NCBI GenBank assembly: GCA_963665295.1 | Contig: OY762209.1 | Coordinates: 3,104,001 to 3,168,000 of the forward strand | Length of the DNA: 64,000 nt | Reading direction: 5' to 3' | Source: Syntrophorhabdaceae bacterium | Lineage (GTDB): Bacteria; Desulfobacterota; Syntrophorhabdia; Syntrophorhabdales; Syntrophorhabdaceae | Part shown: piece after piece, positions 46,350 to 52,107 of the stretch | Layout: the number at the start of each line of letters is the position of its first letter | Numbering within the stretch: the first letter of the stretch is position 1 | Notes under the pieces: generated by a model | Seen by the model: the letters and a program-made list of their open reading frames with translations, nothing else | Told to the model about the DNA's origin: nothing | The model's database searches: none | Position numbers and translations under genes: made by a program

Positions 46350-47582
46350 ATGAATAGCGGGGAATTAAAGGAGCGGCTGGAACAAAAAGAACAGGAGTTG
46401 AGAATACTGCACGAAGTGGCTCAGGATATCAGCAGCAACCTTGACCTTCATGAGCTTCTCGTAAAAATAGTCGACATGGTTATGAATACCATTGCCGCTG
46501 ATTCGTGCCTGATTTATCTGTACGATAAGCATAACGAAGAGCTTACCCTCACAGCGTCAAGTAACGCGGACCACAAGATGCTGGGAAGGGTGAAACTCAA
46601 AATAGGCGAAGGTGTTACGGGTTGGGTTGCAAAAGAGAAGAAGCCCCTGGCCTTGGAAGCCAAGGCCTACAAGGATCAGAGATTCAAAACCTTCACATCC
46701 CTGGACGACGAAAAATATGAAGGCTTCCTCTCCATACCTATTCTCTCCAAGAATGAGATCGTGGGTGTAATGAACATCAGAAACCGCAAGGAACATCGTT
46801 ACCCGACCCACCAGATAGATCTCCTGTTCACTGTGGGCAGGTATCTGGGGAGCGCCATTGCAAATGCGAGGATCTACGAGGAAGTGGTGAGCAAGGCAAA
46901 ACAACTCGACCTGCTCTCGGAAGTATCCCGTACCATCGTTTCCGATTATTACCTGAAGGAGATCCTCCAGCTTATTGTCACCATGACCGCGGAAGTGATG
47001 GATTCGAAGATATGTTCGATAATGCTTCTGGATGAGAAGAAGGAAGAGTTGATCATCGCTGCCACCCAGAGCCTGAGCCAGGAGTACCTGAGCAAGCCGA
47101 ACCTGAAGGTCGGCCAGTCGGTGAGCGGCAGGGTGGTTCTGGAGAAGAAGCCCATTACCGTCGAGGACGTGACAATGGAGAAGGGCTTTATGTTTCCCGA
47201 TGTGGCGAGAAAGGAGGGCATTGTATCACTTCTCTCCGTTCCCATGATGATCAAAGACAGGGTCGTAGGGGTTATCAACAGCTATACCCAGAGCGAACAT
47301 AACTTCAATAAAGAGGAAATTGACATTCTTCAGACAGTGGCCAATCAGGCTGCCGTGGCCATAGAAAACACCCACCTGAGTCAGGAGATATTCGCCGCAA
47401 AAGAGGCCCTCGAAGCCAGAAAGACCATTGAGCGGGCAAAAGGAATACTGATGAGGGAATTGGGCGTCTCCGAGGATGAGGCATACAAGAAGATCCACAA
47501 GAAGAGTATGGACCTCAGAAAGACCATGAAAGAGATTGCCGAGGCAATCATCCTGACCTTCGACCTCAAGAGAAAGATTTAA
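46350..47582 (+). CDS. GAF-GAF-ANTAR RNA-binding antitermination regulator
   Basis: Two GAF repeats ('GEGVTGWVA', 'GQSVSGRV...LLSVPM'); C-terminal ANTAR 'RKTIERAKGILM...SEDEAYKKIHKKSMD...MKEIAEAI'. Confidence 0.93.
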   Translation: MNSGELKERLEQKEQELRILHEVAQDISSNLDLHELLVKIVDMVMNTIAADSCLIYLYDKHNEELTLTASSNADHKMLGRVKLKIGEGVTGWVAKEKKPLALEAKAYKDQRFKTFTSLDDEKYEGFLSIPILSKNEIVGVMNIRNRKEHRYPTHQIDLLFTVGRYLGSAIANARIYEEVVSKAKQLDLLSEVSRTIVSDYYLKEILQLIVTMTAEVMDSKICSIMLLDEKKEELIIAATQSLSQEYLSKPNLKVGQSVSGRVVLEKKPITVEDVTMEKGFMFPDVARKEGIVSLLSVPMMIKDRVVGVINSYTQSEHNFNKEEIDILQTVANQAAVAIENTHLSQEIFAAKEALEARKTIERAKGILMRELGVSEDEAYKKIHKKSMDLRKTMKEIAEAIILTFDLKRKI

Positions 47583-47636
47583 CACCTCTTTGCATCAGCC
47601 CTCCGGTTGACCGGGTTCCGCCCTTCCGTACCGGCA

Positions 47637-47665
47637 GGTTACCATATGGGTCAGGCGGGAACTTG
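47637..47665 (+). promoter_or_regulatory. Bipartite motif GGTTAmCA-N16-ACTTG, copy 1 (candidate alternative-sigma promoter)
   Basis: GGTTACCA 47637-47644 and ACTTG 47661-47665; same spacing as copy 2 at 48386. Confidence 0.5.
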
Positions 47666-47691
47666 ACACGGGGTGCTGAAAGGAGTATTAT
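47663..47691 (+). promoter_or_regulatory. Sigma70-type promoter upstream of the sigma-factor leader
   Basis: TTGACA-N17-TATTAT. Confidence 0.7.
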
Positions 47692-47701
47692 AAACTTAAG
47701 T

Positions 47702-47796
47702 AGACATTGAAGTCTCCTGGTAGAGGCTGCTAATAAAAGTTAGGCGGACTTAGGCGTCCAAATCACCATGGGTGGTTTGAACGCCTTTTTTGTTTT
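47702..47796 (+). promoter_or_regulatory. ANTAR-target dual hexaloop leader overlapping an intrinsic terminator
   Basis: AGAC-ATTGAA-GTCT (47702-47715) and GGAC-TTAGGC-GTCC (47746-47759). The second hairpin overlaps the terminator AGGCGTCCAAATCACC-ATG-GGTGGTTTGAACGCCT-TTTTTGTTTT. Confidence 0.75.
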
Positions 47797-47822
47797 CGTC
47801 CGCGACAAACGAGGTGGCGAAC

Positions 47823-49705: not shown

Positions 49706-49761
49706 AGACATTGAAGTCTCTTTGAGCTACGCCTCTTGCCGCACCAGAGGCGAGGCGTAGC
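49706..49761 (+). promoter_or_regulatory. ANTAR-type hexaloop hairpin (exact 15-nt copy of 47702-47716) followed by a 10-bp hairpin
   Basis: AGACATTGAAGTCTC at 49706-49720; GCTACGCCTC...GAGGCGTAGC at 49726-49761. Confidence 0.6.
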
Positions 49762-49886
49762 GCGGAAGTACCGTAAACGGACTGTCCGGTTCGCAAGGTT
49801 GTTGCCCGAGGTGCGTGCAGATGCGGGATTCGGAATTCGGAAAACAGGCTCAAGAACGGCTATTTCCAAACTGGAGGAGGAAGACT

Positions 49887-50153
49887 TTGAGTGACGAAAC
49901 AGACGAAAGGATTCCGGCGCATTGGTATGAGGCAACAGAGTCGAGGTATGTATGTTTGTGCTGTCACAAAGTCTTTAGTCGGGTATATAAGCCCAGAAAC
50001 ATCCTCCGAAGGAAGAAGAAAGGCCGCGGGGCCAACATGTTCTCCCTGTGGGCCTGGCACAACTTCAGGAAACATTTGTTGAAGTGCTGGGGCAACCGCA
50101 GTCTTCCGGGAAGGGAATCATCGGGCCACGGTAATATGGGCAAAACCGACTGA
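49887..50153 (+). CDS. Small basic Cys/His protein (putative zinc finger), 88 aa
   Basis: GGAGGAGG 6 nt before TTG; 'YVCLCCHK...HNFRKHLLKC'. Confidence 0.55.
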   Translation: MSDETDERIPAHWYEATESRYVCLCCHKVFSRVYKPRNILRRKKKGRGANMFSLWAWHNFRKHLLKCWGNRSLPGRESSGHGNMGKTD

Positions 50154-50183
50154 CACGGGTAGCCGAAAAAAAGGAGGCTCAAG

Positions 50184-51755
50184 ATGAAACGGAATGTAGT
50201 TGTACTGGGATTGGTAATGTTCATGATCCTCGGTCTCGTGGCGGCAAGCTTTGGGGTTGAGCCTGATCCGGCCGGGGCAAAGACGGGTGGCGTGGCCGAC
50301 GTGGTGGGTGCCTCCGCAAATGCACCGACCGCCGACGATTTGAAGAAACTTGCAACGAACGAGCCGCTGGCTGTGAAACTCGCGGACGTGGTAGGTCATA
50401 ACAGGATCGCCATAAATTTCATGTGGACTCTCGTATGTGGCTTTCTCGTTATGTTCATGCAGGCCGGGTTCGCCCTCGCTGAGACGGGTTTCACCCGGGC
50501 CAAAAACGCCGGCCATACCATGGCAATGAACTTCATGGTGTACGGCATAGGCATGCTCGGGTACTGGATATGCGGTTTTGCCCTGCAAATGGGTGGAGTA
50601 GGCAATGTCGCAGCCCTTGGGGGCGGTACCGGTCTTCTTGACGGGGAGTTCGTGGTAACGCTCTTCGGGAAAGAGTTCGGTCTATTCGGGATGAGGGGAT
50701 TCTTTCTCTCAGGCGTATCTTACGACGCCGCCATTTTTTCGCTGTTCCTCTTTCAGATGGTCTTTATGGATACCACCGCGACGATACCCACCGGCACGAT
50801 GGCGGAACGTTGGACTTTCAAGTCTTTCATAGTTTTTGCATTCTTTATCGCAATGTTTACTTACCCGTTGTACGCAAACTGGGTATGGGGAGGCGGGTGG
50901 CTTTCCCAACTGGGAAAGAACTTCGGCCTTGGTCACGGGACTCTCGATTTTGCCGGTTCTTCGGTGGTGCATATGACGGGTGGTGTCGCCGCCCTCGCCG
51001 GGGGAAAGGTCCTTGGAGCGAGGCTGGGAAAATACAGGGCCGATGGTAAGCCGAACGCAATTCCGGGTCACCACATTCCCATGGCGATTCTCGGTTGTTT
51101 TATCCTTGCCTTCGGGTGGTTCGGGTTTAATGCGGGCTCGACTCTCGCCGGTGGTGATTTGCGAATCGGTGTTATAGCCGTCAATACAATGCTTGCGTCG
51201 GCTGCGGGAGCCTTCTCTGCAATGGTCTACATGTGGACCCGGTACGGTAAGCCTGACCTGTCGATGATAGCCAACGGGATGCTGGCGGGACTCGTGGCGA
51301 TTACCGCACCCTGTGGTTTTGTGAATTCCATCTCCGCAGTCATTATTGGTCTGATTGCGGGCGTGCTGCTCTGCGCAGGTGTGTTCTTCGTGGAGCGCGT
51401 GCTCAAGATCGATGATCCTGTCGGCGCTATATCGGTGCATGGAATGAACGGTGCGTGGGGTCTCCTGTCGCTGGGTCTATTTGCGGACGGAACCTATGGT
51501 GACGGCCTTAACGGCGTGGAAAAGACCGTAAGAGGTCTCTTTTACGGCGACCCGTCTCAGTTTGGCGCTCAAGTTGTCGGGATGATCACGAACTTTGTCT
51601 TTGTGTTTGTGGTTATGTTCATCTTTTTTAAGGTTCTCAATCTTATCATCCCCCTGAGAGTCTCGAAGGAGGCCGAACAGGAAGGCTTGGATGAGGGAGA
51701 GGTGTCCGTAATCGCGTATCCTGACTTTGCGGTAAAGAAAGACCACATAATATAA
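50184..51755 (+). CDS. amtB: Ammonium transporter Amt
   Basis: 'FMQAGFA', 'FQMVF', 'DFAGSSVVH', 'GWFGFNAGS', '[11 protein letters not shown]'. Confidence 0.97.
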
Positions 51756-51768
51756 TCGGGAGGAGAAG

Positions 51769-52107
51769 ATGAAGAAGATCGAAGCAATCATAAAACCCTT
51801 AAAACTGGACGAGGTAAGAGACGCCTTGACGGGCATCGGGATTCAAGGCATGACCGTGAGTGAAGTTCAGGGGTTCGGCAGGCAGAAGGGCCATACGGAA
51901 TTGTACAGAGGGACCGAATACAAGACGCTCTTTGTCACTAAGGCGAAAATAGAGATAGTCATTTCTGACGACCTCCTGGAGAAAGCGCTCCTCGTGATAC
52001 AGGAAAACGCGAAGACCGGCGCCTTCGGCGACGGGAAGATATTTGTTTCCTCTCTTGAAGATGTAATAAGGATAAGAACCGGGGAAAAGGGCGTAGCGGC
52101 TATCTGA
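51769..52107 (+). CDS. glnK: P-II nitrogen regulator
   Basis: 112 aa; 'AIIKP', '[14 protein letters not shown]', 'GDGKIFV', 'RIRTGE'; directly follows amtB. Confidence 0.96.

Follow-up and report, generated by a model that had tools for sequence, protein, structure and literature searches.

An ANTAR-gated sigma factor is predicted to control ammonium uptake and assimilation genes in a Syntrophorhabdaceae bacterium and its relatives

Bacterial nitrogen control is taught as a small number of schemes, namely NtrBC with sigma-54, GlnR/TnrA, NtcA, NrpR and, occasionally, ANTAR antitermination. A stretch of 64,000 nucleotides from a Syntrophorhabdaceae bacterium (GenBank assembly GCA_963665295.1, contig OY762209.1, positions 3,104,001 to 3,168,000), here called the window, raises the question of how amtB and glnK are controlled where they stand in one row with genes for an RNA-binding GAF-GAF-ANTAR protein and for a putative sigma factor. 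Six open reading frames (ORFs) occupy positions 46350..52107, all on the plus strand, as an initial annotation made from the sequence had stated:

46350..47582, plus strand: GAF-GAF-ANTAR protein, 410 amino acids (aa), with an ANTAR domain at the C-terminus behind two GAF domains
47865..48386, plus strand: putative two-domain sigma factor of the sigma-70 family, resembling the extracytoplasmic function (ECF) type, 173 aa, single copy in the genome
48688..49638, plus strand: outer membrane barrel protein, 316 aa, related to the Gcw_chp/TorF-type putative porins
49887..50153, plus strand: small protein of 88 aa from an unnamed family, with CxxC...HxxxC and a basic linker; the TTG start follows GGAGGAGG
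50184..51755, plus strand: AmtB ammonium transporter, 523 aa, Ammonium_transp 382.5 bits, TIGR00836 380 bits (cut-off 343.3)
51769..52107, plus strand: GlnK P-II protein, 112 aa, P-II Pfam model 108.7 bits (cut-off 25)

The best explanation that we can offer for this arrangement, which we consider probable though well short of certain, is that the ANTAR protein gates synthesis of the sigma factor, and that ANTAR attenuators also lie on assimilation operons which this sigma factor would read from GGTTACCA-N16-ACTTGTA promoters.

Protein identities were assigned with Pfam and NCBIfam models scored against curated cut-offs, and both AmtB and GlnK exceed the scores of their families. The second gene was first listed as an ORF at 47790-48386, and an alternative ATG at 47823, with GAGGTGG, would give 187 aa; the likely start is the ATG at 47865, because the protein belongs to a large and well conserved family, joined at E<=0.001 by 1390 of 1449 candidate proteins, most of which are 173 aa long. 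It is possible to read this protein as a LuxR/GerE-type DNA-binding activator and not as a sigma factor at all, since its best Pfam match is GerE/LuxR (23.6 bits, cut-off 23.5), its region-4-like helix-turn-helix is common to LuxR proteins, and response-regulator output domains match its C-terminus. Its score with the sigma70-ECF model TIGR02937, 39.3 bits, is moreover just under the NCBIfam cut-off of 42.9. However, the TIGR02937 alignment (residues 28-188 to positions 3-160 of 165) covers the N-terminal domain too, and the model is matched at E<=0.001 by 17 of 17 aligned family members, with a best value of 2.9e-15. The N-terminal part also contains the sequences DLYQEAL..LW and SYILQGCYFHLRNYLRK, which we take to be region-2-like motifs. 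When a structure model (predicted local distance difference test, pLDDT, 70.8) was compared with Foldseek, 49 of the best 50 rows were sigma factors or RNA polymerase complexes holding one, among them SigH, SigB, the ECF factors SigE/L/W/H and CnrH, over alignments of about 160-250 columns; the odd row out was an archaeal TBP/TFIIB-DNA complex, and template modelling scores were low because the protein has two domains. We take the protein as a two-domain ECF-like sigma factor for which no named NCBIfam subfamily was reached, and consider it very unlikely to be a LuxR/GerE-type activator. No anti-sigma gene was seen beside the sigma gene.

The GAF-GAF-ANTAR gene is the sole ANTAR gene of the genome. 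Its ANTAR domain (PF03861, residues 350-401) scores 71.1 bits against a cut-off of 27.3, the solved ANTAR chains nearest to it are those of Rv1626 (1s8n) and NasR (4akk), and Pfam finds no receiver domain in the protein. The first GAF domain resembles that of PtsP (EI-Ntr; NF008283, E 2.1e-37; PDB 3trc, E 6.7e-21) and the second the N-terminus of NifA (TIGR01817, E 9e-28), a likeness suggesting that the GAF domains sense nitrogen status in the form of 2-oxoglutarate and/or glutamine. Upstream of the gene lies a candidate promoter:

46276..46305, plus strand: sigma-70-type promoter-like site TTGACA-18-TATAGT, 11 of 12 matches

The leader that would follow from it (46305-46350) is short and unstructured, with a fold of -1.2 kcal/mol that is no better than that of shuffles. 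Given this leader and the sigma-70-type promoter, the GAF-GAF-ANTAR gene is probably expressed constitutively.

The initial annotation had suggested checking whether the sigma factor keeps company with ANTAR proteins and nitrogen genes elsewhere. One genome per species was scanned, and the best 80 of 157 stretches encoding relatives of the sigma factor were taken as the synteny set. These 80 loci come from Syntrophorhabdaceae and other 'delta proteobacterial' metagenome-assembled genomes (MAGs), Omnitrophota, Planctomycetia, Firestonebacteria and Latescibacterota, or about five phyla. A co-oriented GAF-ANTAR gene lies within 2.5 kb upstream of the sigma gene in 57 of the 70 loci with at least 3.2 kb of upstream sequence, and amt, glnK, glnA or GSIII glutamine synthetase genes lie within 4 kb downstream in 29 of the 60 loci with at least 3 kb on that side. 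Directly upstream of sigma, 44 of the 70 loci carry nadE, encoding a glutamine-dependent NAD synthetase (CN_hydrolase and NAD_synthase domains). The usual gene order is GAF-ANTAR, nadE, sigma, barrel, amtB and glnK, often with a second amtB-glnK pair and a glutamine synthetase gene. The window has lost nadE from the locus, and its genome contains distant NAD-synthase matches only.

The sequence between the ANTAR and sigma genes offers a candidate for the way in which the two are connected. Its first leader, leader 1, contains the following elements:

47663..47691, plus strand: sigma-70-type promoter-like site TTGACA-17-TATTAT, 11 of 12 matches
47702..47715, plus strand: hairpin P1, AGAC-AUUGAA-GUCU, core pairs invariant in 22 of 22 leaders
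47746..47759, plus strand: hairpin P2, GGAC-UUAGGC-GUCC, 100% paired in 22 leaders
47752..47796, plus strand: intrinsic terminator AGGCGUCC...GAACGCCU with a U run, its 5' arm overlapping the loop and 3' arm of P2

Leaders of this anatomy, here called type A, consist of a promoter, P1 of the form (A)GAC-AUUGAN-GUC(U), a variable hairpin, P2 of the form GGAC-NNNGGC-GUCC and a terminator that overlaps P2, and equivalent TTGACA-17-TATAAT-like sites stand upstream in the relatives. A type A leader precedes either nadE-sigma, where nadE is the first gene behind it and sigma follows 3-10 nt downstream, or sigma alone, as in the window. Across 22 aligned type A leaders P1 and P2 are nearly invariant, with 92.1% of cells paired, whereas the terminator covaries, 9 of its 14 pairs having changed on both sides (0 of 500 shuffles reach this score). 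This contrast is what one would expect where a protein binds P1 and P2 as an antiterminator and the terminator has a structural role only.

A second kind of leader, type B, precedes barrel (porin), amtB, glnK and glutamine synthetase genes. It begins with P1, (A)CAC-ANUGAU-GUG(U) or in broader form CAC-ANNGNN-GUG, followed after about ten bases by P2, AAC-RNNGGC-GUU, and by a terminator GGCGUUC..GAACGCC with a U run that overlaps P2; a second P2-terminator module often follows. A covariance model built from 36 such leaders, R1, was run over 1.02 Mb of sequence (the window and the loci) and returned 73 matches at E<=0.001, 72 of them on the gene strand. In the model-fitted alignment the pairing of P1 and the terminator stands at 94.5%, and 9 of their 12 pairs covary, a score that none of 500 shuffles equalled; for P1 with P2 the pairing stands at 96.3%. 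G occupies loop position 4 in 64 of 64 P1 hairpins and in 71 of 73 P2 hairpins, while position 1 is A in 54 and G in 12 of 66 P1 loops, and A in 58, G in 14 and U in one of 73 P2 loops. These features match the ANTAR recognition element as given in the portion of Ramesh et al. (2012, PMC3369931) available to us. In a scan of the 80 related loci for A..G.. hexaloops on stems of four or more pairs, intergenic DNA held 430 such hairpins on the gene strand (3.3 per kb) and 176 on the opposite strand, and coding DNA held 1.5 per kb. Rfam scans of window positions 45000-54500 and of a second locus gave sub-threshold chance matches only, and no curated family covers the leaders.

Downstream of the sigma gene the window contains two further leaders and one additional hairpin:

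48447..48506, plus strand: leader 2, type B, before the barrel gene, 49.9 bits with R1, a score that is partly by construction as this copy is in the seed alignment of the model
49653..49719, plus strand: leader 3, three tandem A..G.. hexaloop hairpins, conserved in three of the related loci (L010, L011 and L012)
49726..49761, plus strand: strong hairpin GCUACGCCUC...GAGGCGUAGC after leader 3, with no U run

The initial annotation had placed ANTAR-type hairpins in three successive intergenic regions. Two of them hold, as AGAC-AUUGAA-GUCU occurs exactly at 47702-47715 and again at 49706-49719; the middle one, UCAC-GUUGAU-GUGG at 48447-48460, is degenerate, with G at loop position 1, and aligns with the canonical hairpins of relatives. 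In the third region the hairpin at 49706 (loop AUUGAA) had been seen, and two more, at 49653-49672 (loop AGUGUU) and 49676-49689 (loop ACUGAU), had been missed. The window contains no other match to AGAC-AUUGAA-GUCU at up to 2 mismatches; the expectation for the window is 0.35, and two copies were obtained in 2 of 100 shuffles. One further match to AGACATTGAAGTCT, with 1 mismatch, is found in the 5.5-Mb genome, inside a large ORF on the other strand, and was set aside as chance. P2 of leader 2 is AAC-GACGGC-GUU at 48466-48477, and a terminator-like hairpin GGCGUUCUG/CAGAGCGCC at 48472-48495 ends in a degenerate U run, GUCUUGCGUUG; the second hairpin overlaps a terminator with a proper U run in leader 1 and a terminator-like hairpin with a degenerate one in leader 2. 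All window hairpins have G at loop position 4, and A at position 1 is present in P1 of leader 1 and in all three hairpins of leader 3. Attenuation in this genome may be weaker or may work otherwise, and leader 3, which has no evident terminator, may for that reason act on RNA stability, Rho or translation.

These hairpins could also be ordinary leader structures or terminators with no protein partner, the GAF-GAF-ANTAR protein acting on other RNAs. Several window loops do depart from the rule of A at position 1 and G at position 4, and binding of the ANTAR protein to the leaders is a prediction from sequence. Against this, the hairpins hardly vary from phylum to phylum and the terminator covaries, as would be the case for a protein-binding site, G is kept at loop position 4 almost throughout, the only ANTAR gene of the genome adjoins the leaders, and ANTAR gene, leaders and sigma gene occur together. 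We consider structures with no partner extremely unlikely, and predict that the ANTAR domain binds the leader RNAs of the locus.

What would start transcription of the type B leaders is suggested by a two-block motif, GGTTACCA-N16-ACTTGTA (consensus gGTTACCAaaa-N7-ttttTTACTTGTA), that precedes them. The window contains one good and one weak copy:

48386..48416, plus strand: regulon motif GGTTAACA-N16-ACTTGTA, 1 mismatch, overlapping the sigma stop codon
47637..47667, plus strand: weak motif copy GGTTACCA-N16-ACTTGAC, 2 mismatches, overlapping the -35 element of the sigma-leader promoter

In the 80 loci the spacing from GTTACC to CTT[GT]TA is 18 nt in 72 of 74 gene-strand matches, and the other strand gave three matches only, at other spacings. 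Two bases outside the search pattern are conserved as well, the A after GTTACC (97%) and the A before CTTGTA (100%). A canonical P1 follows 57 of 73 motif sites at 7-65 nt (median 26) and never closer than 7 nt, which fits ACTTGTA as a -10 element with a P1 that needs to be transcribed; most of the remaining 16 sites have variant hairpins or P2-terminator modules downstream. The motif is unlike the TTGACA/TATAAT type used before the sigma leader in the same genomes and also unlike a sigma-54 site, and this fits a dedicated sigma factor. Nothing sigma-54-like was found in the intergenic regions of the locus, in agreement with the initial annotation; rpoN is present elsewhere in the genome. We infer that the linked sigma factor reads the motif. 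Through the weak copy at 47637-47667 it could possibly also activate its own gene; an overlap of motif and -35 element before a type A leader is common only to the window and locus L006.

It is possible instead that the attenuators are real and that the motif is read by the housekeeping sigma factor with an activator bound at the near-palindromic GGTTACC, or by another sigma factor, the linked sigma factor having a different regulon. GGTNACC is palindromic like many regulator sites. The gene directly upstream of GAF-ANTAR belongs to the Crp/Fnr family in the window, as it does at many loci of Syntrophorhabdaceae, and is NrpR-like in two loci (L014 and L026). The porin motif of the window is also overlapped by a sigma-70-like TTGATG-17-TATTAT, from which the housekeeping sigma factor could start. 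The link between sigma factor and promoter is drawn by association, that is, from co-location and co-occurrence in related and therefore non-independent genomes. However, a single spacing kept over several phyla, in a motif that stands before the first hairpin, is like that of -35 and -10 elements, most loci lack sigma-70-like hexamers at the motif, and outside one family most loci have neither a Crp-like nor an NrpR-like gene, while sigma gene and motif travel together. On balance we hold it unlikely that the motif is read by another factor, and we retain the linked sigma factor as its reader.

Co-occurrence within the phylum bears on the same point. The sigma gene was found in 7 of 301 sampled genomes, all 7 belonging to the same taxonomic order as the window. 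Five of five sigma-positive genomes of that order have an ANTAR gene and four of five have R1 leaders, as against one of four and none of four, respectively, in sigma-negative genomes; in that one sigma-negative genome the ANTAR gene borders on the end of a contig, so that a sigma gene there may have escaped assembly. When promoter sites on the same strand were sought near amt genes, up to 1 mismatch gave sites in 3 of the 5 sigma-positive genomes and up to 2 mismatches in 4 of the 5; neither of the 2 genomes lacking both sigma and ANTAR genes had any, and the ambiguous genome had one. These are small numbers from genomes that are kin.

Which genes of this genome would the circuit control? At up to 1 mismatch the motif has four sites in 5.5 Mb, three of them before porin or amtB genes: one lies before the barrel gene of the window, two before further amtB-glnK pairs at 4.84 Mb, and the fourth, unexplained, elsewhere. 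A GSIII glutamine synthetase gene and the sigma leader have weaker copies in front of them. R1 matches at four places: in the window, at one of these amtB-glnK pairs, weakly upstream of FlpD/MTHFR genes, and at 2.65 Mb, where a full promoter and tandem leader stand before a 76-aa ORF, a paralogue of the window's small ORF. The predicted regulon comprises the porin-small protein-amtB-glnK genes, two more amtB-glnK pairs, GSIII and the small-protein paralogue. The weak R1 match (24.5 bits) has a poorer promoter match and was not counted; it lies at 1500-1620 of locus L090 (about 4.826 Mb, minus strand), and the genes downstream are FlpD/MvhD-like and methylene-tetrahydrofolate reductase (MTHFR).

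Taken together, these observations suggest the following circuit. The GAF-GAF-ANTAR protein would be made constitutively, and its GAF domains would report nitrogen shortage. Binding of the ANTAR domain to P1 and P2 in leader 1 would then keep the terminator at 47752-47796 from forming, and the sigma factor would be made. Sigma would direct RNA polymerase to the GGTTACCA-N16-ACTTGTA promoters, where the same ANTAR protein would again be required to hold open the attenuators in the leaders of the assimilation operons. Such a coherent feed-forward loop would have AND logic: the assimilation genes would be expressed only where the sigma factor, itself made only with ANTAR active, and ANTAR are both at work. 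Sigma acting at the motif upstream of its own leader would bring in positive autoregulation. A feed-forward wiring of this kind had been suggested by the initial annotation and is supported, as an inference, by the synteny, by the covariation of the leader 1 terminator, and by the separate attenuators and promoter motif on the uptake genes.

Several results weigh against this circuit, in addition to the two domain scores of the sigma factor, the overlapping sigma-70-like promoter and the associative link between sigma and motif described above. Assimilation genes adjoin the sigma gene in only 29 of 60 loci. Loop position 1 of P2 in leader 1 is U instead of A, with G at position 4 kept; leader 2 is off consensus, with G at position 1 in both P1 and P2 and a poor U run; and leader 3 shows no evident terminator. 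A scan of the 301 phylum genomes for exact GTTACCA-N16-ACTTGTA, a pattern too strict to inform, found 9 genomes with a match, about equal to the reversed control, and a loose scan of the genome itself (up to 3 mismatches with a hairpin rule) was dominated by background and did not separate the true spacing. A broader proposal goes further than the ANTAR-gated circuit itself, namely that this is a self-contained module, made up of a one-component GAF-ANTAR sensor, the sigma factor whose synthesis depends on it, the promoter of that sigma factor and attenuators on all target operons, which has spread as a unit and is the main nitrogen switch, replacing NtrBC/sigma-54, in lineages of at least five phyla, and that in this lineage a new zinc-binding small protein has been recruited to it, acting on ammonium transport or on the circuit. 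We put this forward tentatively, as a possibility that falls somewhat short of being probable.

The small protein is encoded by a real gene, as the initial annotation had it, because its paralogue stands behind a regulon promoter and leader at 2.65 Mb, although the start is the TTG at 49887 and not 49815. Both copies of the genome, the paralogue being at 1693-1923 of locus L088 (about 2.647 Mb), are preceded by the regulon promoter or leaders. Among 1.84 billion representatives a profile search yielded 26 relatives of 58-120 aa, with one outlier of 3242 aa, in which C23, C26 and H63 are invariant, C67 is nearly so, and an LWAWxNFxxHL helix is shared. No Pfam family was found, only weak matches to C2H2-type zinc fingers, and a profile search of the PDB returned only eukaryotic C2H2 fingers over about 20 residues. 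The structure model (three short strands and a long helix, pLDDT 72.4) had no Foldseek match at E<=0.001. A word search gave three proteins, none of them near the sigma gene in the 80 loci. As a working analogy, sP36 of Methanosarcina mazei is likewise a small nitrogen-regulon protein encoded with ammonium-transport genes, and it mediates GlnK-AmtB binding, according to the portion of Habenicht et al. (2023, PMC10714827) at hand. That protein is archaeal and has 61 aa, whereas the window protein has 88 aa with CxxC...HxxxC and a basic linker, and the two are compared with no sequence relation claimed. The barrel gene had been described as encoding a TorF-like porin; 10 of 24 aligned relatives match PF09694 (Gcw_chp), with a best E of 2.9e-07, while the window protein itself has no match to this family at E<=0.01.

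Some neighbouring features may be recorded here. A Crp/Fnr-family gene occupies window positions 45577-46245, between alaS and the GAF-ANTAR gene, and the same is seen in about 30 Syntrophorhabdaceae-type loci. The NrpR-like genes (NRD1_2 and HTH_12) directly upstream of GAF-ANTAR are L014:4551-5558 and L026:4451-5455, and the genome of the window has an NrpR-like gene elsewhere, at about 1.335 Mb. GSIII and the third amtB-glnK pair have leaders, at about 7760-7850 and 9870-9945 on the minus strand of locus L086 (genome positions 4836000-4850000), that share after a P1-like hairpin the element ..CUCACCGACC..GAGGG..UUCAA..GAAC-hexaloop-GUUCAAAA..GUCAA.., which is also present before GSIII in locus L007; no terminator was found downstream of it, and it has no Rfam match. 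At 52221-52400, after glnK and terminator-like hairpins, a strong promoter-like TTGACA-17-TATATA is followed by GC-rich hairpins, with no ORF before the convergent porin gene and no Rfam match; this element is possibly a small RNA. The gene convergent to glnK, at 52458-53909 on the minus strand, encodes a 483-aa protein with a weak Porin_4 match.

If the ANTAR-gated circuit is true, an RNA-binding sensor decides whether a sigma factor is made and then checks each target transcript again. This would be the first sigma factor under an ANTAR attenuator instead of an anti-sigma factor, it would give a GAF-ANTAR protein its first proposed role, and it would provide a new sigma/promoter pair that is short and looks orthogonal. 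The proposed circuit occurs in uncultivated groups, including Syntrophorhabdaceae and Omnitrophota, in which regulation is almost unknown.

The closest published system known to us is that of Geobacter sulfurreducens, in which GnfL/GnfM and GnfK/GnfR form a cascade and an ANTAR protein, GnfR, antiterminates at terminators in the leaders of nitrogen genes, including glnK and amtB (Ueki and Lovley 2010, PMC2995071, in the portion available to us). The circuit proposed here would share with it two layers, initiation and antitermination, on the same genes. In Geobacter, as described in the same portion of that paper, the ANTAR protein is a phosphorylated response regulator, and initiation depends on RpoN with the enhancer-binding protein GnfM, which controls the ANTAR layer (PMC2995071). 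In contrast, the window protein lacks a receiver and carries a pair of GAF domains, the candidate promoters are not sigma-54-like, and the order is reversed, with an ANTAR leader before the sigma gene. The sigma factor itself may be compared with ECF (group 4) sigma factors, which consist of regions 2 and 4, have about 170-190 aa, read a rigid two-block promoter and may be autoregulated. The window sigma factor is likewise two-domain and of similar size, with a two-block candidate promoter and possible autoregulation; it differs in having no anti-sigma gene beside it, and its control would be exerted on transcript elongation of its own gene.

With the targets of EutV (eut), NasR (nasF) and AmiR (amiE), the leaders share two hexaloop hairpins of which the second overlaps a terminator. 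The available portion of Ramesh et al. (2012, PMC3369931) describes ANTAR targets as two such hairpins with A1 and G4, the second competing with a terminator, predicts targets upstream of P-II, ammonium transporter, glutamine synthase and glutamate synthase genes, and states that no GAF-ANTAR protein had then been characterised. The regulons in that portion include no sigma-gene target and no dedicated promoter, and no sigma gene is mentioned in the supplementary files. Loop position 1, often G or U in P2, sets the window apart from the published targets. That an ANTAR-gated sigma factor had not been described as a nitrogen-control circuit, as the initial annotation supposed, agrees with the literature searched, in which neither such a report nor one on a characterised GAF-ANTAR protein was found; this included the accessible part of a 2025 review (PMC12591593), with subscription journals mostly outside the search. 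ANTAR control of amtB and glnK as such is already published (PMC3369931, PMC2995071, in the portions available to us). What appears to be new here is a one-component GAF sensor, the reversed order, and a new sigma family with a putative promoter of its own. The Desulfobacterota form seen in the window would add to these two GAF domains, the absence of nadE, a sigma gene alone behind its attenuator, a possible autoregulatory site, an internal leader of three hairpins, and a putative zinc-binding small protein with a paralogue.

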